64,000 bases of DNA from an uncultured virus (IMG/VR IMGVR_UViG_3300010938_000026) (IMGVR_UViG_3300010938_000026); one strand, 5' to 3'. Shown: positions 39,629 to 59,179, numbered from the stretch's first letter. The notes: generated by a model from the letters alone, not told the origin. Translations and numbers: made by a program.

Positions 39629-39856
39629 GTCCGCTCCTGCGCAAGCCCGGGTGTGGCCATTGGTTACACTCGGGCCGGATTCATACCACCTTCCTTTCCA
39701 AGCTCGGGCGCTGGTGTAACAGCTAGCGCTCGAGCCGTCATCATTACGCTCCTGCGCAAGCCCGGGCGGTGGCGAAAGTCATCGCCCGGGCCGCAATTAT
39801 TGTCCGCTCCTGCGCAAGCCCGCGCTACGCTTCGGTGTAGCGCGGGTCTTTTTTTT
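39629..39856 (+). ncRNA. Tandem array of four ~58-nt leader+hairpin units (putative structured RNA)
   Basis: CGCTCCTGCGCAAG in units 1, 3 and 4 (CCTTCCTTTCCAAG in unit 2), then hairpins at 39646-674, 39703-734, 39761-790 and 39819-846 with G.U pairs, compensatory changes and GAAA/UUCG loops; the last is followed by a U-tract. Confidence 0.7.
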
Positions 39857-39938
39857 GTTCCGCAAAAGAAAATGACGATAGGGCAACGGAATTATTTGCG
39901 ACAGATTTCGATCATGTAGTGCTCGGAAGATCAGACAC

Positions 39939-40478
39939 ATGGCTCAGAATCAAAAACCGTTGATCCATACCGCTACGGTAAAAACGCCTCCTGATTACAG
40001 ACCTACGTGGCCGCAGCGTATATTTATCAGGGTACAAGACACGGAGCTATTCGTGGCCTCCGCGGGTGGCATGCCAGATTCTGCAGACGTAGCTGTGACC
40101 TCTAACGTACACGTACCTGTCCACTTTCGCCTGCGGGACATAGCGGCTTACAAGTACACGCGTAGTGAAACAAACAGCCGCGGACTTGTAGTATACCCAG
40201 GTTGCATAGCGGTAGAGAGTTATACCGGGCCACCAAAGTCCCCGTATAACAAAATCGAACTAGACGGCTACAATCGACGGATTTATTGCAATTACAAATC
40301 GAAAAATGAGATGCGCTTCGTGCAGATTGACTTACTGGCACGCTTTGGCCACGTAGCGATTCGGGATGAAGTAATGAACATGGCGTGCATCCCACCATCT
40401 CTTCTAAAGTTAGAGGCGTGGTCTTGCCGCACAAACGTAGAAGCTTACGAATTGTCTGGATGTAAGTTCCAAGACTGA
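39939..40478 (+). CDS. Hypothetical protein; outlying member of the [DN]T-motif family
   Basis: 179 aa; IFIRVQDTELFV. Confidence 0.6.
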   Translation: MAQNQKPLIHTATVKTPPDYRPTWPQRIFIRVQDTELFVASAGGMPDSADVAVTSNVHVPVHFRLRDIAAYKYTRSETNSRGLVVYPGCIAVESYTGPPKSPYNKIELDGYNRRIYCNYKSKNEMRFVQIDLLARFGHVAIRDEVMNMACIPPSLLKLEAWSCRTNVEAYELSGCKFQD

Positions 40479-42255: not shown

Positions 42256-42290
42256 ACACAGGACACGTGAAGGTCCAACAGCTGACTTCA

Positions 42291-42338
42291 CTCCCGCGCA
42301 AGCCCGCGCTACGCTTCGGCGTAGCGCGGGTATTTTTT
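42291..42338 (+). terminator. Solo copy of array unit 4 acting as an intrinsic terminator
   Basis: CTCCCGCGCAAG-CCCGCGCTACGC-TTCG-GCGTAGCGCGGG-TATTTTTT. Confidence 0.8.
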
Positions 42339-42358
42339 ATGTCAAAAAAGGAGAGTCA

Positions 42359-43099
42359 ATGAACGCTGTCGACGCATTGAATTCTATAACGCTCGCTAAT
42401 GTGTCCAAATCGGCATTTGGCGGCATTCAAGCCGATATTGTCGCCTTTAATGATGTATCTGTTCATTTAGAAAAATCACTCAAAGTGCACGTTGCATCAA
42501 ATGTGCCTATGTACAAGGATAAGTCATACGCGGGTAGAATTAAATTGCTGCTTCCATTATCGGGCGTAAATATTCGTAAATTAGACAAATCGAGCTATTT
42601 AATCGAATCTGGCCCGTATAATCTCTTCGGGGTTGTTGTGAAGACAGGTAATTTCTGGCCAAAAAGCTTCGTCGTAAACACTGTAAAACTGAATGGGCCA
42701 GCGCAGTCTGATCCGTTGGGTAAAGATACTTATGGTTTGATTCTAACCAAAGATGATCACATTTGTGTGCGATGGGGGCATCGGTATATACCAAGACCCG
42801 ACAGGCTACCCGGGTCTCGGCTGGACTATAAGCTTCGTCAGGGTGAGTGTAACATCGATTTGGCTGGGAGAGTCATTGTGACAATCCACAACGACCTCGA
42901 CTTTGGGTGTGCAAACGACGAACTCGACGTTGGGTGTGCAAAGGCAGCTGCAGGGTGTGTGATGGCAATGCTAGCCCTGATTTTGATAGCGATACTGTTC
43001 GTTGTTGTGCTAGGGATAATTGCTGGGGCCATAACCGGATTCAAAGAGGCGCTGGCATTTACCGGCCCAAGCATTTCCGCAGTCGGAAGCCTGATCTAG
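42359..43099 (+). CDS. Hypothetical protein with C-terminal membrane anchor
   Basis: AAAAGGAG SD before ATG 42359; long hydrophobic stretch MAMLALILIAILFVVVLGIIAGAI. Confidence 0.7.
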   Translation: MNAVDALNSITLANVSKSAFGGIQADIVAFNDVSVHLEKSLKVHVASNVPMYKDKSYAGRIKLLLPLSGVNIRKLDKSSYLIESGPYNLFGVVVKTGNFWPKSFVVNTVKLNGPAQSDPLGKDTYGLILTKDDHICVRWGHRYIPRPDRLPGSRLDYKLRQGECNIDLAGRVIVTIHNDLDFGCANDELDVGCAKAAAGCVMAMLALILIAILFVVVLGIIAGAITGFKEALAFTGPSISAVGSLI

Positions 43100-43982: not shown

Positions 43983-44885
43983 ATGAGCCCGCGCTTGTAT
44001 GGAACCTTTATCTTCCGGCTGAAGAACCAGGCTAGCATTGATGTGCTGTATAAATACATGAAGACGTCAGCGGACGACTCCGGGCACGTTCCGGTAGCTC
44101 TGCGACATTATGTTTTAGATATCCAAGAAGACGAGCTTAAAGTCAAACTGAAGACCAAGACCACAAAAGACGGAATCGTTTGCACACTGCCTACAGGCGA
44201 AAAAATCAAGCTGCCCAAGAAACTCTTTCCTCTACGTGTCGTCAGCGGTACAATTTATCACACTGCAGATGGTTACAAGATCAAAATCCTTTACGCAATT
44301 CGCACTAAAGCCCGTGTTTTAGACCCTGAGAAGATCGTTGGAATTGACCTTGGTGTACATAAGATCGTTACTTCTGAACCTGAGACCTATAAGTTTCCGA
44401 AGCGTTTGTTGAAGACCTTAGAGAAGCGTGATCTTGAAAGTAAAGACGTTAAGCGACAGTTAACTGCGTTCTACACTCAAGTTGTTGTAAAGCTTTGTAA
44501 AACCTACGATTACATCGCTGTAGAGAAGTTCAATCCGCATTTTCAACCGATCGCTGGTACCGAATTGTTCTACGAAGTTCTGAAGCGTCAAACACAAAAA
44601 TACGGTAAACAAGCTGTTTTCGTAAATCCTAAGAACACTTCAAAATTCTGCGCTACGTGTAACGTGAAGCTGAAACCAAAGAATGCGGACTTGCAGTACT
44701 GCCCCAAATGCAAGAAAGCCGTTAACCGTGATGTCAATGCAGCCACAAACGTCAAAAACCTTGCACTTCGGCGTTCTGACTCGGCCGGTTTTGTTGGGAC
44801 TTTGCCGGCACCTGACCATCCACCATGTGGTACGGGTAAATTAAATGTTGCAGGGGATCCTTTCGAGAACCAAGGAACCTGGTGA
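43983..44885 (+). CDS. tnpB: TnpB-family (IS200/IS605 OrfB-like) RuvC nuclease, compact, with no tnpA
   Basis: RuvC-I VGIDLG; RuvC-II IAVE; VNPKNTSKFCATC...CPKC zinc finger; RuvC-III NRDVNAATN; GGGAGG SD. Confidence 0.88.
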   Translation: MSPRLYGTFIFRLKNQASIDVLYKYMKTSADDSGHVPVALRHYVLDIQEDELKVKLKTKTTKDGIVCTLPTGEKIKLPKKLFPLRVVSGTIYHTADGYKIKILYAIRTKARVLDPEKIVGIDLGVHKIVTSEPETYKFPKRLLKTLEKRDLESKDVKRQLTAFYTQVVVKLCKTYDYIAVEKFNPHFQPIAGTELFYEVLKRQTQKYGKQAVFVNPKNTSKFCATCNVKLKPKNADLQYCPKCKKAVNRDVNAATNVKNLALRRSDSAGFVGTLPAPDHPPCGTGKLNVAGDPFENQGTW

Positions 44886-44945
44886 GGAAGGGTGGGCCGT
44901 AGGCAACGATGCCCAAATCGAGCCAGAATCCCGCTTAAAGGTGAC
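44780..44945 (+). ncRNA. Candidate omega/reRNA scaffold overlapping the tnpB 3' end
   Basis: Several GC-rich stem-loops (GCCGG..CCGGC, CCAC..GTGG, CAGG..CCTG, GGGC..GCCC) where TnpB RNAs usually lie; boundaries are guesses. Confidence 0.35.
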
Positions 44946-45000
44946 ACATCGGCAGAAGACAAAAAAGGTAATTTAAGGCATAAAAATTAGTTCTCTGTAC

Positions 45001-45276
45001 CCCTGCCCAACCTCTTAGGGAGTAAAAAACTTAAGGGGACCGGGCAGTTTTCATCTTTTGAATAAAACTTTAATCGCAAGATTAAAATTTTACTACGACA
45101 CAAATAGCCGCCAGTACCCATGATGACAGTGAAAACTAACCAAGAATCCAAACATGATGACAGTGAAAACTAACCAAGAATCTAAACCCTGCCCAACCTC
45201 TTAGGGAGTAAAAAACTTAAGGGGACCGGGCAGTTTTCATCTTTTGAATAAAACTTTAATCGCAAGATTAAAATTT
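45001..45276 (+). repeat. Two identical 90-bp direct repeats (45001-45090, 45187-45276) enclosing a 34-bp tandem repeat (45119-45186)
   Basis: CCCTGCCCAACCTCTTAGGG...GATTAAAATTT twice, 186 bp apart; CATGATGACAGTGAAAACTAACCAAGAATCYAAA twice. Confidence 0.92.
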
Positions 45277-45366
45277 GACCTGAACACACACGATAGTCGC
45301 CAGCACTCCTCCAACCAGTAAAAAACTAGAAAAGAACCCCAACCCTAACGTACACCTCTCTAGATC

Positions 45367-45417
45367 GGCTTGAGCCAGCTCCTGATACAGAACGCTGGCT
45401 CAAGCCAACTTTTTTTT
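45367..45417 (+). terminator. Intrinsic terminator
   Basis: GGCTTGAGCCAGC / GCTGGCTCAAGCC 13-bp stem plus T8. Confidence 0.85.
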
Positions 45418-45446
45418 ACCAACCATAAAGACAGGAGATTGCCAGA

Positions 45447-46019
45447 ATGTACATCAAAAACAAAAAAGCCCACATCAGCACCAGTACGGTCAGCCCAAAA
45501 TTCATACATATAAAATTCAAGCACACTAAACTGATACTCACAGAAGAGGCACCATACGGGTCAATGCTGGAAGCAGAATACGTCACCAAAAAGGTTAGCG
45601 ATAAATACGTCCCGAAATTGCTGGTCATGACTCATAACGAAAATAACGTAGCCATGACATACGAAAACGCACATGAAATCCTGGACCTGATGATCGAAGA
45701 CCAACGGGAATATGAAGAGGACGAGTCCGCAACCAGATTGAAAATCGAAAAGAACGACTATCTGAACAACGAACACAAAACACTAACACTAAAATACGAT
45801 TGCGCCATTGCTGACCTGCGTAAAGGTAAAATAAACCTGAGAGTCTTGATCACAATGCCAACAATGCGAAGCGGATTACTGGTCGATAAACGCCTGTCTA
45901 AAGACCTGAGAAACTCACACATCGACCTGGATCAATTCACCGTAAGCCCGGAACTACAGCCAGATATCAGGGCCATCGAACGGAATTTAATCACGGGATT
46001 AAAATCCAAAATTCGATAA
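45447..46019 (+). CDS. Tandem-array protein 1 (beta-rich, unknown function)
   Basis: AGGAG SD; 190 aa; IHIKFKHTKLIL. Confidence 0.7.
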   Translation: MYIKNKKAHISTSTVSPKFIHIKFKHTKLILTEEAPYGSMLEAEYVTKKVSDKYVPKLLVMTHNENNVAMTYENAHEILDLMIEDQREYEEDESATRLKIEKNDYLNNEHKTLTLKYDCAIADLRKGKINLRVLITMPTMRSGLLVDKRLSKDLRNSHIDLDQFTVSPELQPDIRAIERNLITGLKSKIR

Positions 46020-46038
46020 ACAGGAAGACAAGAAACTT

Positions 46039-46650
46039 ATGCGCTTAGACAACAGCAAGAAAGGGTTTTGCCTGACCACAACAACAGAACCCAGGACGCT
46101 AAAACTCGAATCCAAAACGACCGACTGCATCATAACCGCGATAGCGGGACGAGAATACATCGAGGCTACCTTCAAAACTCCACAAATCCGCGATACATAC
46201 GTCCCACAATTTAAGACCATAACCGAAGGACGCGTCCGGCAATATGCTGCGTGCTACATTAACGTCAATAAAATCCTGGAAGCAAATCGATTGGCTTATA
46301 ACGACGTGCTCCTTCAAACAAGTAATTACCTGAAAAAGCGGCACATTCTGGTAACTCACCATCAAAACACGATCAGCATTAAAATGTTCGTCGATAACAC
46401 AAGCAAATGCGCGGACATCGCCCTAAAAAATAAAATCGAAATCCGAATCAAGATCAGTAAGTCCGTACGCGACAGCGAAATAATCTTGGGTGAACACAGA
46501 CTCGTCTATAACACCACATCAATACCGAAAACTACCCCATCCCGGAATTTAATCACAGGATTAAAATCCAGCCAGCACGACTCAAATGCAGGAGAACACT
46601 GCTATGATCATTGCAATAGTCGAACCTCCAGAAGGCTACCGCCAGATTGA
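46039..46650 (+). CDS. Tandem-array protein 2
   Basis: 203 aa; LKLESKTTDCII. Confidence 0.6.
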   Translation: MRLDNSKKGFCLTTTTEPRTLKLESKTTDCIITAIAGREYIEATFKTPQIRDTYVPQFKTITEGRVRQYAACYINVNKILEANRLAYNDVLLQTSNYLKKRHILVTHHQNTISIKMFVDNTSKCADIALKNKIEIRIKISKSVRDSEIILGEHRLVYNTTSIPKTTPSRNLITGLKSSQHDSNAGEHCYDHCNSRTSRRLPPD

Positions 46651-47119
46651 AGAAAAATTCGCGCTGTACGTCTACGACGACTCGTACTACATGCAAATCA
46701 AACTCGCTAACGCCGACCTCATAATCCAGGTTCCTGAAGGATGCAAGAAATTCGTGACCGATGTACGTTACGCCCGGCGCTATACCAGCCAGTGGAGAAT
46801 AAACTGGTACGCTGACGCCACCCACGGTGAACTATGTAACGCCAGTAAACACTGCGAACATAACCTGAAGTGGAAGGTTGAAGACATAATCTATGACGAA
46901 TTCACGCTCCAGCGCGAAGACGCAGATGGTACCCAGTTCATACACGCAATGCGGGACCAGTCACCGCTCATCACTACCAAGGTGCATACACGGGAAGGTC
47001 ACCAGACACTGGGATTGGAATTGGGCCAGAATAACCTCATCATGTACACACCGGATATACAAATCCTGCCCCTGACCCTGTCAGTCCCGGAAAACACCTG
47101 CAAGAAAAAAAGGAAATAA
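46586..47119 (+). CDS. Tandem-array protein 3
   Basis: About 170 aa; MQIKLANADLII. Confidence 0.6.
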   Translation: MQENTAMIIAIVEPPEGYRQIEEKFALYVYDDSYYMQIKLANADLIIQVPEGCKKFVTDVRYARRYTSQWRINWYADATHGELCNASKHCEHNLKWKVEDIIYDEFTLQREDADGTQFIHAMRDQSPLITTKVHTREGHQTLGLELGQNNLIMYTPDIQILPLTLSVPENTCKKKRK

Positions 47120-47120
47120 C

Positions 47121-47693
47121 ATGCTCATAAGAAAAGATGGCTTCACGATATTGCACAATAACCCTACATACCTGGTCATAAACCTGAAAAATACCACAGT
47201 ATACCTCAGCATAGAACCAAACGAAGCAGTGCTCCGCTGCAAATACGAAACCTCGAATACAGGCATAAAAGACCTGTCGGACTTTGCCCTGTCCCTGCGA
47301 CTTGCACGACTGCACTCGAGCGGGACCAGCCTGTCATGCATGTTCACGACCAGATACGTCTACGCCCAGATGTCCCCGTTCCTCATCAGCATATCCAGCC
47401 ACGACTACCTGAAAAGGCGATACAAATGGCTGGATATGCAGAACTCCTACGTCAAGATCACGCGGCGAAATCGGGAACAAGAAGAAATGGTCCTAGTCGA
47501 TCTGGCTAAAGAGGGAATAGTCCGGGTAGCCCGGAAACTGTCCATCGTACAACACGACCGGGCAATCGTCCCGCTGTCCGCAGAGTCTACCCGATACCAG
47601 ACACAGGTCACCCTGCCCGAAACTGATAAGCGCAAACGCCTGACCCTGCCAAAGACGCTCTGCCAGAAAACAGAGCTTGACATTTACGGCTAA
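47121..47693 (+). CDS. Tandem-array protein 4
   Basis: 190 aa; LVINLKNTTVYL. Confidence 0.65.
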   Translation: MLIRKDGFTILHNNPTYLVINLKNTTVYLSIEPNEAVLRCKYETSNTGIKDLSDFALSLRLARLHSSGTSLSCMFTTRYVYAQMSPFLISISSHDYLKRRYKWLDMQNSYVKITRRNREQEEMVLVDLAKEGIVRVARKLSIVQHDRAIVPLSAESTRYQTQVTLPETDKRKRLTLPKTLCQKTELDIYG

Positions 47694-47886
47694 TCCTGCC
47701 GTATCCAGACGACCATCTTAAAACCTTATTCGAATGGAGTACCACCATGCACCTCCGTACCGAAAACTTCCGCTTGAAGGTAGGCGAAACAGGTATCGAA
47801 TGCCCGCTACATTTAGACATAAACCCCTAGCCGACCAGTGGCCCAACACACCAGCAAACCTGACCACAAAAGGAGGTTAACAGGCA

Positions 47887-48357
47887 ATGCAAATAGATGC
47901 TGGAAAAGTCCTGCTGATAGCAGATGTCCTCGGCGTATTCACGTTGCGCGTTGCCAATACCGAACTCCACATAGATGCCAGAGACGGATCGGAAGATACA
48001 CAGCTTATCTACCGAAACTCGATGGCACGAAATCCCTCGTCCATTTGCTTTGGTTTCACCATCAGTGACGCTCAATATTACGAACCCGACTGTGTAAACC
48101 ACCGCCGGCGTCTCATGGTCGAGGACCAGGGAAATACCATAACGTGCCGCAGCGAGGATTACATGGCGCGCCGGCTAACAGAAATATGCTTGGGGCCGGA
48201 CGCGATCAAATGTGCATTCAAATCGGACCGAGGGATTACAGCGTTTCGCCTGTCTTTAGACCATGATCACGTGACCGTCGAAGTGAAACAGAAATTCCAC
48301 CATGTCCATCACACAAAGCAGTTCCTGACTGCACTGAAAAACCGGGCGAAATCTTAA
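47887..48357 (+). CDS. Tandem-array protein 5
   Basis: AAGGAGGT SD; 156 aa; FTLRVANTELHI. Confidence 0.7.
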   Translation: MQIDAGKVLLIADVLGVFTLRVANTELHIDARDGSEDTQLIYRNSMARNPSSICFGFTISDAQYYEPDCVNHRRRLMVEDQGNTITCRSEDYMARRLTEICLGPDAIKCAFKSDRGITAFRLSLDHDHVTVEVKQKFHHVHHTKQFLTALKNRAKS

Positions 48358-48399
48358 TCCTGTGATTAAAATTGTCCTCTAAACCAAGGAGAAAATGCC

Positions 48400-48936
48400 G
48401 TGCAGTTAAAACATGGTAAAACCGAACTGAACCTGCACTGGATAGGTGCCATGAGTATTGCTGTCAAAAATACTGAGACACTCCTGGCCTTCGGTAAACA
48501 TGTACACCGGATAGAAGTCAAATACAATACGCGAGCGACATGCGACCGGTACGTCCCGCATGCTACCTTCAACTACGCGAAATCACCCTACGAATTCTTC
48601 ATTTGCCTGAACCCCTGGAGAAAAATTACCGTGGACCTAAACATGGACAATCACGGCAACACAATTATCATAGCCGTCGACTACAGCAAAGACCGGGTCG
48701 CTGAACTGACTCTCACCGGCCGGGGTATATTCGCCCGGCTGCAGAAAGGAAATCTCCAGAAAGAATGTATCCTTCATGTCAGAAGTGATCCCGAGGCGCT
48801 GGATGTGTGTAAAGAGCAAATCAGAATTGTTCGCGAGCAGCCGTATACCCTCAAGCGCTGGCGGCCAAATATCCCGCTCCGCCCGCGCCTGACAGATATC
48901 CCGGTGGTAGATGTCGCACCGGAAGGCAAGCTATAA
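48400..48936 (+). CDS. Tandem-array protein 6
   Basis: AAGGAG SD with GTG start; MSIAVKNTETLL. Confidence 0.65.
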   Translation: MQLKHGKTELNLHWIGAMSIAVKNTETLLAFGKHVHRIEVKYNTRATCDRYVPHATFNYAKSPYEFFICLNPWRKITVDLNMDNHGNTIIIAVDYSKDRVAELTLTGRGIFARLQKGNLQKECILHVRSDPEALDVCKEQIRIVREQPYTLKRWRPNIPLRPRLTDIPVVDVAPEGKL

Positions 48937-48937
48937 C

Positions 48938-49459
48938 ATGAAACCTACAAAGAAGTCGTTCCGCCGGGTTTACACTACCGATAGCGGACCACTGGTTCGC
49001 TACGATCATTTCATATTTCGTCATGAACCTGGAAGAGAATATTCACTGACCATACTCCTTCGAGATACAAATTTTGGCATAGATGTCTACATAGCATCAG
49101 CCCTGGAGCACGTAGCCGTCGCCTGTAATACTGATTGTCTGCCCCGGAAATGTTTCTGGGCCCTTAACGAACTGGCACATGACCATGAAGTATATGCGGG
49201 AACCTCCCGTAATCTGTTCGTCGTCCACCCGCCCGGTTCCGTCCTCCGGATCAGACGCCTATCCGGACATAAGAAAATACGACTTCACGGTACAAGATAT
49301 GCGCGCACTGTGCGGGTCTGGGCCAGCGATGCCAGCGAATTTGCGCGCGCCTGCATTAAAATCCTTTCCCCGTCACGTATTACCGCGTCTTATTCACGTT
49401 GCGTCAGGGCAAAACGCGTGTCCATTCAAACCCGACCCAGAAAAGGAGTTTTCAAATGA
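48938..49459 (+). CDS. Tandem-array protein 7
   Basis: LTILLRDTNFGI. Confidence 0.6.
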   Translation: MKPTKKSFRRVYTTDSGPLVRYDHFIFRHEPGREYSLTILLRDTNFGIDVYIASALEHVAVACNTDCLPRKCFWALNELAHDHEVYAGTSRNLFVVHPPGSVLRIRRLSGHKKIRLHGTRYARTVRVWASDASEFARACIKILSPSRITASYSRCVRAKRVSIQTRPRKGVFK

Positions 49460-49989
49460 TTTACTGGCGCCTTCCGCCGGAGCCACGTGATCCGTCTCCA
49501 TACGCAAGCAGCGCTGTCTCCATAGAATACTATACCCGGCTGCAATATGAGCTGTATGTCAGAGTCCGCGATACGCTGGTGTCAGTAAAACGTAACCGTG
49601 ATCTGAATTATGAACAGGTTCACTGTATGCGTGGCAAGTCAGCCAGCGATAGAAAAATTGACTATGACCTGCGAACAGGCAGGGACTTAGCGGAGTTAAC
49701 ATGCAAAGGTGACGAGATAGGTCGCAATAGTTACGTTAACATGTGTTCCGTACACAAAGAAAAATGCACCGGTCGGATGCGTTCCCTGATCGTTTACAGG
49801 CAATGCTGTGCTATTGATTGCTGTGTTGCGCAGCGCGATTGCAAGCGGTTAATTTATCTCACATTTGGCCCGACCAGGTTGACGATAAGCGGGGCCATCT
49901 TCAGTTTCTTGTTCTGGCAGCCGTCGCTACTGGTCAGCGAGGGCGAAATCGATATCGACGGCTATGTTTACCCGTTGAAAGCCCGGTAG
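49456..49989 (+). CDS. Tandem-array protein 8
   Basis: AAAAGGAG SD; ATGA coupling; LYVRVRDTLVSV. Confidence 0.65.
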   Translation: MIYWRLPPEPRDPSPYASSAVSIEYYTRLQYELYVRVRDTLVSVKRNRDLNYEQVHCMRGKSASDRKIDYDLRTGRDLAELTCKGDEIGRNSYVNMCSVHKEKCTGRMRSLIVYRQCCAIDCCVAQRDCKRLIYLTFGPTRLTISGAIFSFLFWQPSLLVSEGEIDIDGYVYPLKAR

Positions 49990-49999
49990 GGAAGAACCT

Positions 50000-50521
50000 A
50001 TGCCAGCACTTAAGCTCCCAATATGTCTACCAGGATTTGAAAACTGTGTCCGTTACGATTACACAACACTCCCCACACCTTATGCTGCCGTATGCGCTCA
50101 TAGTACTACGATAGAAATCGGGTCCTTACACGGCACAGTCGTACCCTTTGCCCTGCGCTATATCAGTTACTTACGTGACCGTACCCAGGGATTCCTGTAT
50201 TTCGCAGGACCTACATCCGTCACCGTGGCGCATGACTATTCGTCCAGGCACCTGGACTACTTTTATTTCCTGCCCCGCGAATTTACGTGCGAGTCCAGGT
50301 CAAAAACCAGGAAATGCTCCATTCGAGTCAATCCGTTCTCACGCTTGATACGATACCGAGTCAGTGACCGGTGCCTGGATGTGTCTATCTGGATTTCGAG
50401 TCTTGGGGTATGGATACGTCACCGCGAAGGATCGAATCGGGAAGATATGTCCTGCCCTAACCATATACACATGCCAGCGCTTTCAATCAGAACGGCAAAT
50501 TGCCGTAGGAGGAAATTATGA
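50000..50521 (+). CDS. Tandem-array protein 9
   Basis: 173 aa; AAVCAHSTTIEI. Confidence 0.6.
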   Translation: MPALKLPICLPGFENCVRYDYTTLPTPYAAVCAHSTTIEIGSLHGTVVPFALRYISYLRDRTQGFLYFAGPTSVTVAHDYSSRHLDYFYFLPREFTCESRSKTRKCSIRVNPFSRLIRYRVSDRCLDVSIWISSLGVWIRHREGSNREDMSCPNHIHMPALSIRTANCRRRKL

Positions 50522-51093
50522 GCACTGCATGTACTGATGCGACCAAATTGGGAAGAAGCGTAACAATTCAAAAGTCGAAGTCCATTTCGGTGGTCTCCGA
50601 GGACACTGAGTTTTACATCGATCTTGTGTCCCGCCGTCTATCTATTCGCTGGCACATCGATCCTTCACACGCGGAAACGCTCTACATGATTTATGGATAT
50701 GAAGCAGACGGCTACTTGGCGGGCCGCGTCTATGTGAGCGGTAAGAATTTGTTCCTATCTTGTAATTCGGCGTTGACGAGTGTCGAGAGCTATCTTGGAC
50801 CGTTAGGCATCGGGTTCGAGCAAGCCTATGGTGAACACTATCTAGATAGCATTAACTGGCATGTCCGTCAACAAGATATGGAGTACAACACCAAACTTGA
50901 GTTTACCCCGTGGGTTTCACTGCGGCGCAGCATTCGTCGCGTTAAGAAAGATGAGCGCGGGGCAAAGCAACCTGATGGCGGCCAGTTTGATGAATGGTGG
51001 TTGAGTCCCTCATTTCCCGAGGACAAGTATGAGTGCTTCCGTGAAGTTCAACAAAGACCCGCAGTCGACGAATCGGGTAACGATAACGATTGA
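50518..51093 (+). CDS. Tandem-array protein 10
   Basis: AGGAGG SD; ISVVSEDTEFYI. Confidence 0.65.
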   Translation: MSTACTDATKLGRSVTIQKSKSISVVSEDTEFYIDLVSRRLSIRWHIDPSHAETLYMIYGYEADGYLAGRVYVSGKNLFLSCNSALTSVESYLGPLGIGFEQAYGEHYLDSINWHVRQQDMEYNTKLEFTPWVSLRRSIRRVKKDERGAKQPDGGQFDEWWLSPSFPEDKYECFREVQQRPAVDESGNDND

Positions 51094-51544
51094 CGACACG
51101 CAATTGACGGTTATTCCAAATCCCGGAGGCATTGCCGTACATGTTTTCCAGGGTAGATCCTATCCTGCATACGATACCTCATGCCCGCGTGACCCGAATA
51201 CCGTCAGTCTCGTCGACTACACAAGCCCGGATTCTTTCGTATGGTATGTCGCCGCCGGTCGTGCTCTCTACATAAAGTCGGGTACGACCTGCGGGAAACG
51301 TTTGATGAACCTCGAACTCTTCGTAAACCGCTGGCGGACGGGTGACATCAGCTGGTTTATTGATACCGGACTGCCCATAATTAAACGAGTTTCCTTGATC
51401 TTCTATGCGGGTGCGATAGCCCGGACGGATTTTGCTCTTTCGGTCCGCCATGGCCGCAATCGCCCGGAATTGCACCAGGTTGAAGACCGACTCTACTGGC
51501 TGATTCCAAAGATATCCATTCCTCCAGGGAGAGAACATACATGA
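51029..51544 (+). CDS. Tandem-array protein 11
   Basis: 171 aa; VTITIDDTQLTV. Confidence 0.6.
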   Translation: MSASVKFNKDPQSTNRVTITIDDTQLTVIPNPGGIAVHVFQGRSYPAYDTSCPRDPNTVSLVDYTSPDSFVWYVAAGRALYIKSGTTCGKRLMNLELFVNRWRTGDISWFIDTGLPIIKRVSLIFYAGAIARTDFALSVRHGRNRPELHQVEDRLYWLIPKISIPPGREHT

Positions 51545-52098
51545 TCTGTATCCGAACACCTTCAATCAACATTCCTGCTCCGGACCGGTTCTCCAACGCA
51601 AAAACCACCATCATCGTGCGCGACACGACATTCTCAGGGCAAAGTACTTGGGTTAGCGGTGGTGAGGACTTGGCCTTTCACTCAGATGAGAAGCAGTCCT
51701 TGAATATCTATATGACGCCACGTAGTGTGTGCATGCGCAACGCGGACGGATCGGTACATTTTGGCCTTGAATACTTATCTCTGGGGCGTGTGGAAGGAGA
51801 AGAGGATTACGCCATTTCATTTAATTTCTTCGTGGAGGCCAGGCAGGTCCAGATTGAAATGGCCGATCAAACACATCTTTTATTGTACATCTGCCTGAAC
51901 CTATCCTCTGGAAGCTCCTCGCTCATTCTAACCCATCCACACGAGGCGCCCCGCGAGCCTCTGGCAATAAAGCTCAAATTTCCCTATCCGCAAACGCTCG
52001 AGACCGTCGACGATCGGTTCTATTTTACGTCAGATGGTACTGTACGCCCGGCGGACAATCAAGATAGTGAACCCGTATCAGGAGAGGAACGAATGTGA
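51541..52098 (+). CDS. Tandem-array protein 12
   Basis: MICIRTPSINI...TTIIVRDTTFSGQS. Confidence 0.65.
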   Translation: MICIRTPSINIPAPDRFSNAKTTIIVRDTTFSGQSTWVSGGEDLAFHSDEKQSLNIYMTPRSVCMRNADGSVHFGLEYLSLGRVEGEEDYAISFNFFVEARQVQIEMADQTHLLLYICLNLSSGSSSLILTHPHEAPREPLAIKLKFPYPQTLETVDDRFYFTSDGTVRPADNQDSEPVSGEERM

Positions 52099-52649
52099 TT
52101 GCCCTGGTTACCCCATCTATTTCCGTCAATGAGCATGTATTCGGGCCGGCACTGGTATTCCGGATGCAGATCCGCGTGTACGATACTGAATTTGTAGGTC
52201 AGTCGGAGGGGTCGCGTGATTGTGAGCGCATTTCCTGCTCCCTGGGCGTGAATCCAGCGTTCTACCTTTGCGCGGGCCCGCGGACTCGGGAGATCTGTGA
52301 TGCACATAGGCATGGTCTTGAAGTCGCTTCCACCTACGTGACGGTTATATCTCCGAAGTGGGACACTGACCTTACGCTCACGATGTGTTTTTTCGAGCGT
52401 GTCATCCCGATTCGCGCCACACAGTGGAAGCAGAAGAAGCAAGTAGACACTCTTGAGCTGCATCTCACGCGCGTCATGAATCGCCTGGAGATACTAGCTC
52501 AGCCCAGTAACCCGCTAAGCGCGATTAACACCGTACCCGACATTACCCGATTACGCTTCGTGGATGAGGACACCCCTGAAGGAGGTCACGATGAGTGTGG
52601 TATTTGCCCCGAATCTTCCGAACTATCAACCACCAGCGACCCGATTTAA
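52095..52649 (+). CDS. Tandem-array protein 13 (closest to protein 12)
   Basis: MIALVTPSISV...MQIRVYDTEFVGQS. Confidence 0.65.
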   Translation: MIALVTPSISVNEHVFGPALVFRMQIRVYDTEFVGQSEGSRDCERISCSLGVNPAFYLCAGPRTREICDAHRHGLEVASTYVTVISPKWDTDLTLTMCFFERVIPIRATQWKQKKQVDTLELHLTRVMNRLEILAQPSNPLSAINTVPDITRLRFVDEDTPEGGHDECGICPESSELSTTSDPI

Positions 52650-53091
52650 CCTTCTTATCGAAGTGGACGATACCAATCTACAGCTGCGCGAGCGGACGCG
52701 TTATGGGTCCGACGACATCAGGGTATCGCAAAAAGCCTTTAGCATTATCACGACGCAATTTCATCAATGGATTGTGGCCCGTGCGGGAGGTCGGTTCATT
52801 TTCGATCTTCACAAGCGATACTCCCGGCGCCTGGAGTTGGAGCCGGGAGTATTCATCACGCCTGTGGTAACCGGTGATACGGCACGCGGCCACGTGCAAG
52901 TTCATCGTTACGTAGGATATCCCGATTTCGGGTTTGAACTCCCATGTACGTCTGGTGAGAAAGGAAGCGGGACGGTACAGTTCGACACCGACTGCATATG
53001 CATTACCATCCTGCGACCCGAGAAACCGCTCGCGGTGATTGTACCTTTATATCCCGATCTTCCAAAGGAATTAAATTTATGCCAGGATTAG
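52591..53091 (+). CDS. Tandem-array protein 14
   Basis: AAGGAGGT SD; LLIEVDDTNLQL. Confidence 0.65.
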   Translation: MSVVFAPNLPNYQPPATRFNLLIEVDDTNLQLRERTRYGSDDIRVSQKAFSIITTQFHQWIVARAGGRFIFDLHKRYSRRLELEPGVFITPVVTGDTARGHVQVHRYVGYPDFGFELPCTSGEKGSGTVQFDTDCICITILRPEKPLAVIVPLYPDLPKELNLCQD

Positions 53092-53582
53092 TTTTACGAA
53101 ACGGCATATGTGAGTTTTCCTGGCCGAGTCGGCCCCTTAGCTCTACGGACCGGTACCATAAACTGCGTGTGCAATTCAGAGGCACAGCCCTATCAGCCGG
53201 GTATGCTGCACCGGAAGACATTCTTGTAAATTCAAGCGAACGTTCGTTTCACATAAGAGTCGCGAGGCGCCAGGCAATAATCCGGATTGACGGTCGGGAA
53301 TTGACCAAAGCTCTTTTCGATTATGAGGAAGGTCCCGTCAAAGTTTCATGCGACACGGATTATAACGGCCTTAGTTTCACGGTCAGTCCACCTATATCAG
53401 ATCACATGCTACTTGTCTCCATGACAGCCGCCTCTGGTGCGGAGAACCGCACAGAGAAATTACACATCCGTCTGCACACGCCACAGTCACTAACACGTGA
53501 AATCACATGCATGCAAGTTGTTGATTTGCTGGATGCTCATGTGAATTTAGAGGATATTTTGTCGGTAATAAAACCGACCTGA
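53079..53582 (+). CDS. Tandem-array protein 15
   Basis: AAAGGA SD; LRVQFRGTALSA. Confidence 0.6.
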   Translation: MPGLVLRNGICEFSWPSRPLSSTDRYHKLRVQFRGTALSAGYAAPEDILVNSSERSFHIRVARRQAIIRIDGRELTKALFDYEEGPVKVSCDTDYNGLSFTVSPPISDHMLLVSMTAASGAENRTEKLHIRLHTPQSLTREITCMQVVDLLDAHVNLEDILSVIKPT

Positions 53583-53612
53583 GCAATGTCCCTTTCCTAA
53601 TCCGAGGAGTCT

Positions 53613-54143
53613 ATGAAAACCAAGATTCGGTTCCGACCATGTATGGTCCGGCTAGACGGAGACCTTTATGTATACGGTGTCGTGCAGGATACAACATTTG
53701 AGCTGAATAAAAGAGGAATGGAATTCAATTATCACGTTGTGCGCTGGCAACAACCAATATCGACACAATGGAAGGTTTCGCCCGGGCGTGCCGTGTTTGC
53801 GGTGACCATGGAAGCTGAACGCAAGCACGCACTAGATATACGTTACATCCGTACGGCCGATGTGTCGCGTCACGGATGGTCGTGCGAAAGGCGGGACGAT
53901 CTTAATTCTGGATACTGTAGCATGTCTGTCCCATACGCAAGTATATCTATCTACAGCTATCAACGCTACAGCTATCAACGGAACAATTTTCCGGTGTATT
54001 ACGAGATAGACTATCTCTTCGATCTATCCTCATCTGGGGTTTACCTGCGCCATAAAGTATTTCGTGAGGCCGGAAAACAAATCCGGCGTTTTCTATTGAA
54101 TGTGTCAGTATGTGACTTCCAAATTGTGGAGGACAGCTTATGA
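53613..54143 (+). CDS. Tandem-array protein 16
   Basis: GAGGAG SD; VYGVVQDTTFEL. Confidence 0.65.
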   Translation: MKTKIRFRPCMVRLDGDLYVYGVVQDTTFELNKRGMEFNYHVVRWQQPISTQWKVSPGRAVFAVTMEAERKHALDIRYIRTADVSRHGWSCERRDDLNSGYCSMSVPYASISIYSYQRYSYQRNNFPVYYEIDYLFDLSSSGVYLRHKVFREAGKQIRRFLLNVSVCDFQIVEDSL

Positions 54144-54703
54144 GTGACCTATTGGCGGCGTTTTCACGCGGGCGCGTCGCTTGGTCTGTGGATCTTGACG
54201 GCAGGCGGAGACTAGAGGTCGCAGTACCAGATACCACCATGTCCCTCCAGTTCATCAAGGGACGGGACGCAGCTATAGGTGAGCCTTGCCTGCAGTGTTC
54301 TTGGGCAGAGACGGAATACGAATTGCGGGTCGGTAGTATAAAGCCGTCGGTCAATTCTGCACAAGGTCAACTGTCAGCGGAGACCAGAGGCGGATACCGC
54401 AACTTGGCTCGGATTGACGAAATAGCTCAGTTTTATCAATATGCTATAGGTAACTTGGATTACCGCACTCCGTTTCAGATCTTGTGGACACAGTATCCCA
54501 AAGATCCAGATCGCTGTGCGTATGGATGGGAACATACCATAACATGGTGGCGATATCCTTTATTGCGTGTAGTGCATCGTCATTTTATAAAACCTACGGA
54601 ACGTACGGCACGTACATTGCTGACAATGCGCTACCAGCTGCTGATGTGTCCACGCATTAAGTTCGACGGCGACAGGATCCGTGTGCCCAAGCTTATCGCG
54701 TAG
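54140..54703 (+). CDS. Tandem-array protein 17
   Basis: GGAGG SD; ATGA coupling; LEVAVPDTTMSL. Confidence 0.65.
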   Translation: MSDLLAAFSRGRVAWSVDLDGRRRLEVAVPDTTMSLQFIKGRDAAIGEPCLQCSWAETEYELRVGSIKPSVNSAQGQLSAETRGGYRNLARIDEIAQFYQYAIGNLDYRTPFQILWTQYPKDPDRCAYGWEHTITWWRYPLLRVVHRHFIKPTERTARTLLTMRYQLLMCPRIKFDGDRIRVPKLIA

Positions 54704-54736
54704 GTCGCGCCTGTTGGACTGGGGAAGGAATTCGCG

Positions 54737-55216
54737 ATGACTTCAGTATATGCAAGGAATCTTCCACGCTCTGCCTACAAAGATTTATATCTGACGGATT
54801 TCTGCCCCGGGGACTACTTAACCGTTTCCCTCGGGTATACACACTTTCACCTCATTCTGAGCTACCGATTTGTACCCTATGAGTTCATGATAGAAGACTT
54901 GCGTACTGCGCATTCTCATTTCTCCCTACAGTTGGGCAGGTCCGGCTTTCAATTCGCGAGTCGCGCGCGACGCTTGAGTCACAGCCAGTTTGTGATCGAA
55001 ATTGCACGTCGTATTGCTCAAACAACACTCAGTGGGCATGGGTACAAAACGTTTGTTTGGTACAGCACAGTGCGTGGTGGGTCATGTTCGGAGTTCCACG
55101 GCGCGGTTTACTTGGGCGACATTATTCCGGGGCGGCCGGCGCCTGTCAGTATTGATACGTCTGGCTCACCCCGGCGTCTCATTGTTGGTGCGGGTTTACC
55201 TGATTTACAGGGTTGA
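54737..55216 (+). CDS. Tandem-array protein 18
   Basis: 159 aa; LTVSLGYTHFHL. Confidence 0.55.
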   Translation: MTSVYARNLPRSAYKDLYLTDFCPGDYLTVSLGYTHFHLILSYRFVPYEFMIEDLRTAHSHFSLQLGRSGFQFASRARRLSHSQFVIEIARRIAQTTLSGHGYKTFVWYSTVRGGSCSEFHGAVYLGDIIPGRPAPVSIDTSGSPRRLIVGAGLPDLQG

Positions 55217-55220
55217 TAGT

Positions 55221-55745
55221 ATGGCCGGTGTATGCATCGAAGACTTGAAACTTGGTAGATTGATCTTTTTCGTGGACAATACGGTAGTCGCTGTCTGTAG
55301 CCGTGATGATGTGCGGAGGCTGATCTCCATCTATGAACGCACACCGTGCAATGGTGAAGAGCTTGTATTTGAGATTAATTTGTCTACCGCACCCGCTAAA
55401 TGGCTGTTCTTGACCAGCCCCAACAGTTTATATGTAGACAACCTAACCCGCCCGGCTGTGATTACCCACCGCGATAATGTGTTCTCTCGCGTATTATTTG
55501 GGGGTGGTGGTGAATGTCATACAGATGCCATATTCCGCAAGGCGCATCATACGCTGAAATGTTGTCTAGGATTCGGTGGCCCAGGTATATTGCTGCGGCA
55601 AGAATCGCAGTATGTCTCATGGGAGCAGCTTCGCCCGGGCGAACAGGAACCAAAGTTTCCTCGAGGCATGATTGCCCCGTATAGCCTGCGCTGGGATTAC
55701 GACCTGGCTTGCGAGTCTGGTCAATTACTGGTCCAGGCAGATTAA
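55221..55745 (+). CDS. Tandem-array protein 19
   Basis: LIFFVDNTVVAV. Confidence 0.55.
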   Translation: MAGVCIEDLKLGRLIFFVDNTVVAVCSRDDVRRLISIYERTPCNGEELVFEINLSTAPAKWLFLTSPNSLYVDNLTRPAVITHRDNVFSRVLFGGGGECHTDAIFRKAHHTLKCCLGFGGPGILLRQESQYVSWEQLRPGEQEPKFPRGMIAPYSLRWDYDLACESGQLLVQAD

Positions 55746-55779
55746 TGTCCTATAGATTCCCAACCGTAAGGAGGATAAT

Positions 55780-56310
55780 ATGTTCACGTTTTGGGAGGGT
55801 CGGGTCCATTTTGGCACTCTTCCGCGGGCGCAAATTGACATGCAGTTTCAAGATACAAGTGTGCTGATAGAACCACACCACATATTCTCAGGGGCACACA
55901 GTTACTATTGGCGTTTTAATTGCACTGTCGGTGATAGGTATTTCATCTATACCGCATACCACGATGGATTCGAGCACAGCGTGATTTTGCGACCTTCCTC
56001 CCCCGATAGATTATATCGACGGACGCGCTCCCCAAGGCGTAGCAACTATACTGAGCACACCCTTAAATGTGACTTAGTATGGTCCCTCGAAGTTTGCTTA
56101 CAAGGGAACCATTCTGATCCGCTGATCGCAATGGAGTCGGATACTGAGGATGTCTACCGCGATATCGAGCTTTCTCCTTCCTGCATCGCAACAAAGTACC
56201 CCGCGCGTAAGTCCCCATCTGTCACTCATTTCGAATCCCTGTTCATCTTTCATCGGCAGTTGCCGAAGGTGGCGATTCCTCACGTGGATATCGAGTCGGC
56301 TTCCGCGTGA
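55780..56310 (+). CDS. Tandem-array protein 20
   Basis: TAAGGAGG SD; IDMQFQDTSVLI. Confidence 0.7.
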   Translation: MFTFWEGRVHFGTLPRAQIDMQFQDTSVLIEPHHIFSGAHSYYWRFNCTVGDRYFIYTAYHDGFEHSVILRPSSPDRLYRRTRSPRRSNYTEHTLKCDLVWSLEVCLQGNHSDPLIAMESDTEDVYRDIELSPSCIATKYPARKSPSVTHFESLFIFHRQLPKVAIPHVDIESASA

Positions 56311-56376
56311 GGTGGCGGCCAGCCGGCACAACTACAGCGTAGTTGCAAGTATCAACTTTCCGCTGGAGGATTAAAA

Positions 56377-56910
56377 ATGTGGCAAATTTGTGTGGATAAT
56401 TTATGTATTAACTCATCCCGTACCTGGGATCATAAGCGCCCCAAGAGACATCGAACTTTCGATGGGCGATCAAAAACTATTGAAATCCAAGATCAGCGAT
56501 TTCAAATATGGATACATTCTTCTGGCACGGGACTGGCGGTCTGGGATGATAACCATAACTATGGTGTTGACTGTATCGTGGCAGACGAGAGTGATACTCT
56601 TAGTATGGAAACACGTGTTTGGGATAAAGGTAATCGGCGGGTTCTAGCATCGTACGCTCGAGCGGAGTGTGTTTATTCAATTCATGGCGATCGGGATACC
56701 ACACTCGACTTTTACAATTTCGAAGTCCGCCGGCGCCTCGCTTTAATCTTGCCGGGTAAACATCAGCTCGTTGACCGTGTAATAAAGTTTCTTCGCGGCC
56801 GTTTGAAGATCGCCACGGCAATGCGAGGAGACAGTGTTTGGACAATTAGGTACATCAACTTGTACCCGCCATACCGGCGGATGTGCAAACAAGCTTGGCC
56901 GGCAGAGTGA
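56377..56910 (+). CDS. Tandem-array protein 21
   Basis: GGAGG SD; KTIEIQDQRFQI. Confidence 0.6.
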   Translation: MWQICVDNLCINSSRTWDHKRPKRHRTFDGRSKTIEIQDQRFQIWIHSSGTGLAVWDDNHNYGVDCIVADESDTLSMETRVWDKGNRRVLASYARAECVYSIHGDRDTTLDFYNFEVRRRLALILPGKHQLVDRVIKFLRGRLKIATAMRGDSVWTIRYINLYPPYRRMCKQAWPAE

Positions 56911-56932
56911 GTAACCTCGGAAAGGGCTACAA

Positions 56933-57505
56933 ATGAGATGGAAGATTTATGTCTACGGGTCACTCCTAGGCCGGCGTCACAAATCGGGGATTGATCTTAT
57001 GCGGACGTGGCAATCCGATCGCTGGGCTGTACGCATATACGCTGAGTATCCCTCCTGTTTATCAGTTGACGTTGGTAGCCGCATGCTGAATATTTTGGCC
57101 ACAGGATGCCACTACGAATTGCATACGGGGGCACATTATGTTGCACTGTATGTAGTCCCGCCGGCGACTTTTCAGCATTGTGCCCGGAGGCTGGCGAAAA
57201 GCGCGACGTCTGCGAATTTATTCAGTACGCAGCCGTCTGTTGAGGCGACGGTTCATATGTGCTCAGATCGCCGGCGAAATAACATGATTAAAATGCAGCT
57301 CATTCATGGCAGTTGCTTCAATCAAGAGTTGATCTTCTTTCGTGAACACTTGCGGTTTACCGCACGTTATACGTCGAAATATCAAAAGGTAATGCAAAAC
57401 ATTTATCTGCGACCCTCATGTCGCAATTTATGTCGGCTTCCAAATCAAAAGGAGCAGCGTAATGTCGAAAGCATTGACGAGCATCGTGAGGCGAGTAGGG
57501 CCTAA
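56933..57505 (+). CDS. Tandem-array protein 22 (weak motif; resembles protein 21 at its ends)
   Basis: MRWKIYV vs MWQICV; QNIYLRPSCRNLC vs RYINLYPPYRRMC. Confidence 0.55.
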   Translation: MRWKIYVYGSLLGRRHKSGIDLMRTWQSDRWAVRIYAEYPSCLSVDVGSRMLNILATGCHYELHTGAHYVALYVVPPATFQHCARRLAKSATSANLFSTQPSVEATVHMCSDRRRNNMIKMQLIHGSCFNQELIFFREHLRFTARYTSKYQKVMQNIYLRPSCRNLCRLPNQKEQRNVESIDEHREASRA

Positions 57506-58113: not shown

Positions 58114-58674
58114 ATGAAGTACTGTGATTTCTGCTCCTTGTATGACTTAGATGTTGACTCTGAGATCGATCCGAATGCGGAGGTTACAGTTTCCGACCGG
58201 ATTACCGGTGTAACTCATCTCAACGATAAGCTTGAGGGGTTCTCACCTGAAGAGATCTACGATGCTGTGTACGAGGACTACGCGGCTACACAACTGCAAT
58301 TAGAAACATTATGGATCCGTGTGCAGACATTCAAACGCGCCTCTGTCTATGATATGCATGGCAATCTGCGTACGTATAATCTTGACTACGATGAGCGTAC
58401 GGTTGCGGTTCCGCCTGTTGAGCCACCCTGCACCGGTGGCGAGCACGACTGGGAATGGTTCGGTCAAGTGGTCGACTTGACGCCGGCTGCCCGAAACTAT
58501 GTGGTCCGTGGGCCGGTGTATTCTGAACGGTGTCGGAACTGCGGGATGACTCACGTAATTCAAACGGACGTGGACGAGCCATTCTCGTTCCTTCCAGGGT
58601 ATACCCGCGAAGAGTATGGCCCTGTCCAATCCCATAAAGGGGAGACCGACGATGGATCTGGCACGACAGATTGA
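58114..58674 (+). CDS. Hypothetical acidic protein with possible Zn ligands
   Basis: GAGGAGG SD; C..GEHDW...CRNCG. Confidence 0.7.
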   Translation: MKYCDFCSLYDLDVDSEIDPNAEVTVSDRITGVTHLNDKLEGFSPEEIYDAVYEDYAATQLQLETLWIRVQTFKRASVYDMHGNLRTYNLDYDERTVAVPPVEPPCTGGEHDWEWFGQVVDLTPAARNYVVRGPVYSERCRNCGMTHVIQTDVDEPFSFLPGYTREEYGPVQSHKGETDDGSGTTD

Positions 58675-59179
58675 GCGCATCATTCCCCATCGGGTCAGGC
58701 AACGATCCAATCTAAGCTGCGAGTTATATGGATGGCTTGTATTTCAAGGTACTCACATAAATCTTACTAACCGGTACTTTGGGGTGTCCTCGCGTCCCAT
58801 TTCTGAATTTCAAGTTACCAATGTGGAGTTTGAGTTTGAGCTAGTCCGGAACGTTGTCCGCCTGCATCAAAATAGGTCATACAGATCACTCGATCTGGCG
58901 CGGCACTACCTCTCCCTGCAATGTCGGGAGGCTGCGCGTTTTGCCAATGCACGTATGATTTACATCGTGCAAGGTCAGTGCGAAGTAACCGCCCCAAACA
59001 TTTTGATCGCCTTCCGACCTTCGTTCTTTCGAATACGTATCTCTCGCAGGAATTTACCCTCGCTGGAACTTCGATTCCGCACACGCTCATGCTTGCGGAC
59101 GTTACCCGAAGACGCGCGGCAGTTTTTACGATCCACCAAAGTTAACAAACTTGGACGCCGCGGCATAATTTCAGGGTGA
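58652..59179 (+). CDS. Hypothetical protein, possible array-family outlier
   Basis: GGGGAG SD; GWLVFQGTHINL. Confidence 0.55.
   Translation: MDLARQIERIIPHRVRQRSNLSCELYGWLVFQGTHINLTNRYFGVSSRPISEFQVTNVEFEFELVRNVVRLHQNRSYRSLDLARHYLSLQCREAARFANARMIYIVQGQCEVTAPNILIAFRPSFFRIRISRRNLPSLELRFRTRSCLRTLPEDARQFLRSTKVNKLGRRGIISG

Follow-up and report, generated by a model that had tools for sequence, protein, structure and literature searches.

Clusters of accessory ORFan genes and occasional sets of paralogs are known in phages, and in T4-type phages hyperplastic ORFan regions are flanked by promoter/stem-loop cassettes (PeSLs). The internal proteins of T4-type phages carry a targeting sequence at the extreme N terminus together with a protease cleavage site, and large eukaryotic DNA viruses are known for multigene families and 'genomic accordions'. 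Excerpts of published accounts assign T4-type internal proteins a counter-defence role and a capsid targeting sequence (PMC3012670) and record that evolved T4 amplified a counter-defence gene in tandem (PMC9391042). Here we describe an array of 22 consecutive genes (o01–o22) spanning ~12 kb of a 64,000-nucleotide (nt) stretch of DNA, the window, from an uncultured virus (IMG/VR IMGVR_UViG_3300010938_000026). The products are strongly diverged, nearly constant in length and rich in beta-formers, and most share a short N-terminal block built around [DN]T. The window belongs to a phage contig of 74,426 nt, and the array occupies 16% of this 74-kb genome. Phage genomes are compact and, to our knowledge, rarely keep large paralog sets, so that 22 saturated paralogs filling such a share of a mid-sized genome are unusual.

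The locus shares features with each of these systems and departs from all of them. Like the PeSL regions, it is a run of lineage-specific small genes with a repeated palindrome at some gene boundaries; unlike them, it has this element at only 3 of its 21 internal boundaries (the 3' ends of o01, o02 and o05), it shows no promoter consensus above chance and its genes share a motif and a size. In o01 and o02, moreover, the palindrome lies inside the coding sequence and encodes their common C-terminal peptide. Insofar as the excerpts of PMC3012670 describe the T4-type internal proteins, both are fast-evolving and often basic clusters in which only a short N-terminal element is common; the array differs in its 22 copies of uniform length and its whole-length paralogy in places. 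The likeness to accordions and to the T4 amplification, the latter as excerpted from PMC9391042, lies in host adaptation through tandemly duplicated accessory genes and in arrays of diverged paralogs. Those families, however, have recognisable domains or near-identical copies, whereas the copies described here are saturated in divergence, stable in number over the 13 genes compared and without a known domain.

The 22 open reading frames (ORFs) are real protein-coding genes. A preliminary description, made from the sequence alone, had reported about 22 consecutive + strand ORFs of 155–205 amino acids (aa), mostly led by Shine-Dalgarno (SD) sites or translationally coupled, and each of these points was borne out. 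Twenty-two ORFs are present at 45447-57505; after start refinement they encode 156–203 aa (mean 177.9, standard deviation 11.3), and an SD core of 4–6 nt was found at 20 of the 22 starts. The chance of a 175-codon open frame is ~2e-4 in random sequence of 50% GC, and no − strand ORF across the array is longer than 135 aa. Starts were refined using SD sites and conservation in an orthologous locus, a metagenome contig of 7030 nt (L001) that aligns collinearly to window 47858-54888 (85.8% nt identity). Six were revised (o03 to 46604, o07 to 48938, o08 to 49456, o14 to 52591, o15 to 53079 and o19 to 55221). The long form of o15 has a stop at codon 8 in L001 (L001 5149-5230), upstream of the Met corresponding to window 53079, which establishes that Met as the true start; for o14, the database orthologs (P0016 and P0017) are 166 aa long, the length of o14 from its refined start. 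The genes are tightly packed, with five 4-nt overlaps, four longer overlaps (13–65 nt) and intergenic gaps of mostly 1–66 nt, the single exception being 193 nt between o04 and o05. No tandem DNA repeat was found in the array.

The N-terminal motif is statistically real. All 12 motif strings quoted in the preliminary description were found in the array, and the claim that members share an N-terminal [DN]T motif holds beyond chance. A strict form, defined as h.h.[DN]T.h.h within the first 75 aa, occurs in 9 of the 22 members and in a dispersed ORF at 39939, compared to none of the 49 other window proteins used as controls; 500 composition-preserving shuffles of the members gave a mean of 0.26 and a maximum of 2. 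One column of a MAFFT alignment contains Thr in 19 of the 22 members and [DN]T in 14, with the Thr located at residue 21–44. Anchoring the sequences on this Thr limited conservation to offsets −7 to +4, an ungapped block of 12 residues (h-x-h-x-h-x-[DN]-T-x-h-x-h), and no ungapped conservation was detected in this alignment beyond it; the associated z-scores are inflated because the column was picked by the aligner. Between orthologs, 147 of 169 residues (87%) are identical in the motif window versus 1669 of 2115 (79%) in the rest (Fisher p 0.013). VRDTTF is invariant across four aligned database orthologs of o12 (64–84% identity), to which the L001 copy is additional, and DTEFYID is invariant in o10 and three further aligned orthologs (P0013-P0015).

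Comparison to L001 also revealed how the array evolves. All 13 genes that the contig fully covers (o05–o17) are intact, with conserved starts and protein identities of 65–92%. The ratio of nonsynonymous to synonymous substitution rates (dN/dS) in these ortholog pairs ranges from 0.09 to 0.63 (pooled 0.34), and differences by codon position (297/223/452) fall mostly at the third, indicating fast evolution under purifying selection. Diversifying selection, proposed at first, was thus not seen gene-wide, as dN/dS is below 1 in 13 of 13 pairs. In the relative, 13 of 13 covered copies remain whole and under constraint; each is thus maintained in its own right and they are not redundant, and 12 kb of a 74-kb genome held as 22 copies, with all 13 that were checked under purifying selection, implies a strong copy-specific benefit.

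The members, a short ORF between two of them and two ORFs outside the array are as follows; dN/dS and ortholog identities refer to L001.

45447..46019, + strand: o01, 190 aa; motif IHIKFKHTKLIL (Thr27); AGGAG SD.
46039..46650, + strand: o02, 203 aa; motif LKLESKTTDCII (Thr28).
46604..47119, + strand: o03, 171 aa from the refined start; AGGAG SD at 46604; degenerate motif MQIKLANADLII with Ala at the Thr column.
47121..47693, + strand: o04, 190 aa; strict motif INLKNTTVYL (Thr25).
47747..47830, + strand: ORF of 27 aa in the 193-nt gap between o04 and o05; motif-like FRLKVGETGIEC.
47887..48357, + strand: o05, 156 aa; strict motif LRVANTELHI (Thr25); AAGGAG SD; ortholog 79% identical in aa; dN/dS 0.42.
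48400..48936, + strand: o06, 178 aa with a GTG start; motif SIAVKNTETLL (Thr25); ortholog 65% identical; dN/dS 0.40.
48938..49459, + strand: o07, 173 aa from the refined start, whose ATG and SD are conserved in L001; strict motif ILLRDTNFGI (Thr44); dN/dS 0.23.
49456..49989, + strand: o08, 177 aa from the refined start; 4-nt overlap with o07; strict motif VRVRDTLVSV (Thr40); dN/dS 0.34.
50000..50521, + strand: o09, 173 aa; degenerate motif AAVCAHSTTIEI (Thr36); ortholog 86% identical; dN/dS 0.23.
50518..51093, + strand: o10, 191 aa; motif ISVVSEDTEFYI (Thr30); dN/dS 0.63.
51029..51544, + strand: o11, 171 aa; 65-nt overlap with o10; strict motif ITIDDTQLTV (Thr24); dN/dS 0.47.
51541..52098, + strand: o12, 185 aa; motif TIIVRDTTFSG (Thr29); dN/dS 0.30.
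52095..52649, + strand: o13, 184 aa with a GTG start; motif QIRVYDTEFVG (Thr31); dN/dS 0.40.
52591..53091, + strand: o14, 166 aa from the refined start; strict motif IEVDDTNLQL (Thr28); the most constrained member, dN/dS 0.09.
53079..53582, + strand: o15, 167 aa from the refined start; motif LRVQFRGTALSA (Thr36); dN/dS 0.33.
53613..54143, + strand: o16, 176 aa; motif YGVVQDTTFEL (Thr27); dN/dS 0.37.
54140..54703, + strand: o17, 187 aa; 4-nt overlap with o16; strict motif VAVPDTTMSL (Thr32); dN/dS 0.32.
54737..55216, + strand: o18, 159 aa; degenerate motif LTVSLGYTHFHL (Thr35); first 50 aa, up to the end of L001, 88% identical there.
55221..55745, + strand: o19, 174 aa from an internal ATG (the longest ORF begins at 55002); strict motif FFVDNTVVAV (Thr21); no SD found; the least certain start.
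55780..56310, + strand: o20, 176 aa; strict motif MQFQDTSVLI (Thr26); AAGGAG SD.
56377..56910, + strand: o21, 177 aa; degenerate motif TIEIQDQRFQIW with Gln at the Thr column.
56933..57505, + strand: o22, 190 aa; the weakest member, with VRIYAEYPSCLS and no Thr; leave-one-out rank 167 of 713.
39939..40478, + strand: o23, dispersed member, 179 aa; strict motif IRVQDTELFV.
58652..59179, + strand: o24, possible dispersed member, 175 aa; WLVFQGTHINL.

Members o01–o06 form a distinct sub-block, as they carry K/A-N-T instead of D-T. The 27-aa ORF at 47747..47830 is possibly the relic or stump of a lost array member, a speculative assignment, and was not detected by the hidden Markov model (HMM) of the block. 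The stretch 44001-48000, which takes in o01–o04 and the DNA before them, is A-rich (AT skew 0.22–0.29) and has a lower GC content (0.44–0.48) than the rest of the array (~0.50).

Paralogy extending along the proteins was detectable between neighbours. BLASTP matched o01 to o02 (1.5e-8) and o05 to o06 (2.5e-4), o12 to o13 marginally (0.089) and no others among the members. All-versus-all hhalign with thin profiles (300 pairs) recovered these three again (P 1.3e-4 to 1.9e-3), with o12/o13 aligned over 144 columns at P 1.3e-4. The best three pairs of 300 are all adjacent, so the nearest relatives are array neighbours, which fits the prediction of serial duplication. Two neighbouring pairs had been singled out as most alike; 12/13 was recovered, while 21/22 was not reproduced, the actual pairs being 1/2, 5/6 and 12/13. 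For o01/o02, the Smith-Waterman (SW) score remained at 101 versus 33±5.7 for shuffles once the shared C-terminal peptide was removed, and the homology is therefore independent of that peptide. Merging pairs and orthologs into profiles (91 comparisons) yielded three weak, collinear links with P<0.004: o23 to o12/13 (P 0.0015, 92 columns), o04 to o05/06 (P 0.0025, 123 columns) and o01/02 to o05/06 (P 0.0039, 39 columns). At the nucleotide level, the copies share nothing besides their physical overlaps and one 28-nt element, as the preliminary description had also judged, and no frame-shifted duplication was found among them.

Membership was further assessed with a leave-one-out family HMM built from 25 members and run against 713 sequences, in which other ORFs, reversed sequences and shuffles served as decoys. 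Eleven of the 25 left-out members ranked in the top 30 of 713, where ~1 is expected, and the median rank was 65. The outlier noted earlier at 39939 (o23) ranked first of 713 (E 0.011) and, with its strict motif and its alignment to o12/o13, is supported as a member. The second, at 58652 (o24), is related weakly at most: it has QGT in place of [DN]T and ranked 20 of 713 with an E of 1.5.

Structure prediction was performed for o12 and o14 with AlphaFold2, using a 42-row family alignment. Both models are all-beta meanders of the same topology, modelled with low confidence and containing no N-terminal helices. The o12 model has a mean predicted local distance difference test (pLDDT) score of 52.7; its residues 21–95 form eight regular strands with a block pLDDT of ~58–78, and R27-D28 lie at the first hairpin turn. 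The o14 model (mean pLDDT 39.4) places eight strands within the N-terminal 106 residues. The all-beta models agree with the composition of the 22 members, which is rich in beta-formers, T, Y, I, R, S and C being enriched and A, L and E depleted. The isoelectric point (pI) is at least 8.4 in 15 of the 22 members and ranges from 4.8 to 10.5. No significant structural match was obtained for the AlphaFold models, and the ESM Atlas's own model of o12 (pLDDT 0.30) gave no lead.

The family is without a relative in Pfam, PHROGs and the PDB. With 25 members, Pfam and PHROGs gave scattered sub-threshold matches at E<=0.1. With 42 sequences at E<=10, no Pfam family was matched by more than one member, and a single PHROG was matched by two (best E 0.1). 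A PDB sequence search with the family profile and with o14 alone gave nothing below E 0.98. Word-indexed searches retrieved close orthologs only (four for o12, those of o12 and o10 for the family profile and two for o14), and an exhaustive search of 1.84 billion representatives with the o12/o13 profile returned the family's own clusters and five long repeat proteins only. The known spread is thus a few metagenome contigs with orthologs at 64–92% identity, among them contigs of 8683, 8017, 6905 and 3703 nt and shorter ones. IMG/VR scans with o12, an o10 alignment, the GP88-like neighbour and the AAA ATPase found no relative. Literature searches, which were generic and hence give weak evidence of absence, returned no description of such an array.

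The matches of o12/o13 to long repeat proteins raised the candidate of a PD40/TolB-like propeller (PF07676). Residues ~35–60 of o12 (W-V-S-G-G-E-D-L-A-F-H-S...L-N-I-Y-M) resemble one blade motif, and the matches run through W-x-x-(D/G)-G-x-x-L-A-F-x-S...I-Y-(V/M), which corresponds to hairpin 2 of the o12 model. This candidate was rejected: the likeness is a single stretch in o12 and not family-wide, no such Pfam match appeared at E<=10 in the 42 sequences, and the profile scores are inflated because they are summed over 5–16 repeats.

Uniform size, the common position of the motif, shared composition, homology confined to neighbours and the alignment of o23 with o12/o13 together argue for a lineage-specific duplicated family, and from these sequence features we infer a single origin of all 22 members. 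The reading we favour, tentatively, is that this family arose by serial tandem duplication, diverged to saturation and serves as a host-directed accessory repertoire. The 22 tightly packed, partly translationally coupled genes and at least one dispersed copy (39939) would then descend from one ancestor, with divergence proceeding until only three adjacent pairs stayed recognisable along their length. Each member encodes a soluble, beta-former-rich protein of ~178 aa. In the o12 model, the 12-residue block is the opening beta-hairpin of a meander of ~8 antiparallel strands, and this hairpin could nucleate a common beta scaffold or dock a common partner. The freely diverging remainder might give each copy its own target, amounting to a repertoire of takeover or counter-defence binders; host-directed accessory function is our guess. 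Were it correct, the array would offer a wealth of new inhibitors or binders and a natural case of duplication and divergence building phage accessory functions.

Several results weigh against this reading. Members o03, o21 and o22 lack the Thr; left-out members reached E<0.05 in only 2 of 25 cases; and similarity was undetectable for most pairs, with P>0.002 in 297 of the 300 thin-profile comparisons. Past the motif, similarity barely exceeds that of the null sets (SW mean 27.8 versus 26.9 for reversed sequences, p 0.033; 27.7 versus 26.8±0.2 for shuffles). Leaving the three pairs aside, similarity shows no trend with array distance (Spearman −0.06, p 0.18). On the side of function, dN/dS below 1 gives no sign of an arms race, and neither a family match nor a known neighbouring system bears on what the proteins do. 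Given the low pLDDT and the derivation of both models from one alignment, one fold for all members is no more than plausible. The initial proposal of a single fold expanded by serial duplication thus stands as regards real, uniform, beta-rich genes with a shared motif and homology between neighbours, the single fold being a plausible candidate.

A bolder version of the favoured reading, about which we are rather doubtful, holds that an unseen beta fold was amplified to at least 23 copies, each retained by selection for neutralising or hijacking its own host factor or defence. The invariant [DN]-T hairpin would serve as their shared handle for folding, loading or a host hub, which would make the array a phage counterpart of the multigene families of eukaryotic DNA viruses.

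The array may not be one family at all: unrelated ORFan families or singletons could have come to carry the same N-terminal hairpin through recombination or convergence, their size being set by a packing or expression constraint. Homology beyond the motif links members only within {o01, o02, o04, o05, o06} and {o12, o13, o23}, post-motif similarity is marginal, as noted above, and the palindrome present at three of the boundaries offers a possible means of shuffling. We nevertheless consider this unlikely. Length varies by a standard deviation of only 11 aa over 22 genes, the spacing between start and motif is similar throughout, the compositional bias is common to the members and both AlphaFold2 models share the meander topology. 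A shared module, moreover, has left no nucleotide trace.

Decidedly unlikely, in our estimate, is the explanation that the genes encode packaged and injected internal proteins of the T4 type that neutralise host defences, with the N-terminal block as a head-loading element on otherwise unrelated, mostly basic proteins. That the only family-wide element is short and N-terminal, that most members are basic and that the remainder evolves fast would suit such proteins, and a motif acting as a loading signal would define a new protein-packaging system. The position of the block argues otherwise: it starts 14–37 residues in, with its Thr 21–44 residues in, and lies within a predicted beta-hairpin and not at the extreme N terminus. 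No conserved Glu or other acidic, cleavage-like residue follows it. A common tag on unrelated genes would account less well than duplication for the uniform length and for the three pairs that are paralogous along their whole length. PHROG scans matched none of the head or internal-protein families, and the array is located downstream of the replication genes, in the same direction, rather than within a recognisable set of head genes.

It is very unlikely that the products are subunits of one hetero-oligomeric beta assembly (a ring, sheet or intracellular scaffold) made from coupled genes. Five 4-nt start/stop overlaps and four longer ones do suggest coupled synthesis, every covered copy is intact in the relative and an edge-exposed beta-meander, as modelled, would favour strand pairing, but divergence is far above that usual for hetero-oligomer subunits and the pI range of the members is wide. 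Least probable is a relationship to RNase A-like or EndoU-like enzymes, the members then being diverged nucleases or pseudo-nucleases with the [DN]-T-x-h block as the base-recognition strand of that superfamily: the RNase A signature does contain N-T-F, and a language-model feature search with o14 placed PF18431 (RNAse_A_bac) clusters at 0.88 and PF14436 (EndoU_bacteria) at 0.85 among the nearest named, which is a lead only as both fall below the tool's 0.9 bar, but the 42 sequences had no such Pfam match at E<=10, profile and single-sequence searches found none in the PDB, no conserved His column was seen (the alignment outside the motif being unreliable), the models lack N-terminal helices and the o12 feature search gave different, unrelated neighbours.

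Beyond the array, PHROG and Pfam scans identified the following genes and left the majority of the remaining window genes without a family.

14180-15895, − strand: large terminase.
16.6-30.5 kb: SbcC-like, helicase, DnaB-like, primase, DNA polymerase and UvsX-like genes.
43983-44885: TnpB-like gene, short.
Elsewhere in the window: baseplate J-like protein; sigma-70-like factor; AAA ATPase, DUF2997, DUF932 and GP88-family protein.

The terminase is at most ~25% identical to that of any phage record, and megablast with the array DNA gave no match in phage GenBank records; the phage is accordingly remote from all cultured phages. Scans of species genomes with the TnpB and with the o12 alignment found no relative and so offered no host clue. 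Neither an Rfam family nor a tRNA was found.

The region between the TnpB-like gene and the array holds repeats and a hairpin, and a palindrome, TTAATC-N4-GATTAA, recurs across the window.

45001-45102 and 45187-45288: direct repeat of 102 nt, 95% identical, between the TnpB-like gene and the array.
45119-45186: two 34-nt tandem units between the copies of the 102-nt repeat.
45366..45417, + strand: strong, GC-rich hairpin followed by a T-run, read from the sequence, ~30 nt before the o01 start and just upstream of the o01 SD.
9140, 21995, 31474, 40518, 45070, 45256, 45987, 46549, 48354 and 62382: perfect copies of the palindrome.

The promoter/terminator scan listed the same hairpin in the − strand reading only (45409-45394). 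Because the hairpin and its T-run separate the TnpB/repeat locus from the array, the TnpB neighbourhood looks incidental to the latter. No sigma-70-like promoter above chance follows the hairpin, and no terminator-like hairpin above shuffle expectation was found inside the array. Hairpins with T-runs were seen at 45.4 kb and 62.3 kb with none between, and the array may be co-transcribed. The ten perfect palindromes lie mostly at gene boundaries, one in each copy of the 102-nt repeat, and a longer 20-nt form has 21 strand-wise matches versus 0.04 expected; it could act as an operator, form an RNA hairpin or represent a small mobile palindrome.

Two further cases of paralogy lie upstream of the array. 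A second adjacent pair, unrelated to it, occupies 40826-41572 and 41569-42255 (BLASTP 8.5e-7), and the ORF at 39653-39919 is similar to part of the membrane-anchored product of 42158-43099 (phmmer 3.2e-6). Tandem duplication seems to be common in this phage.

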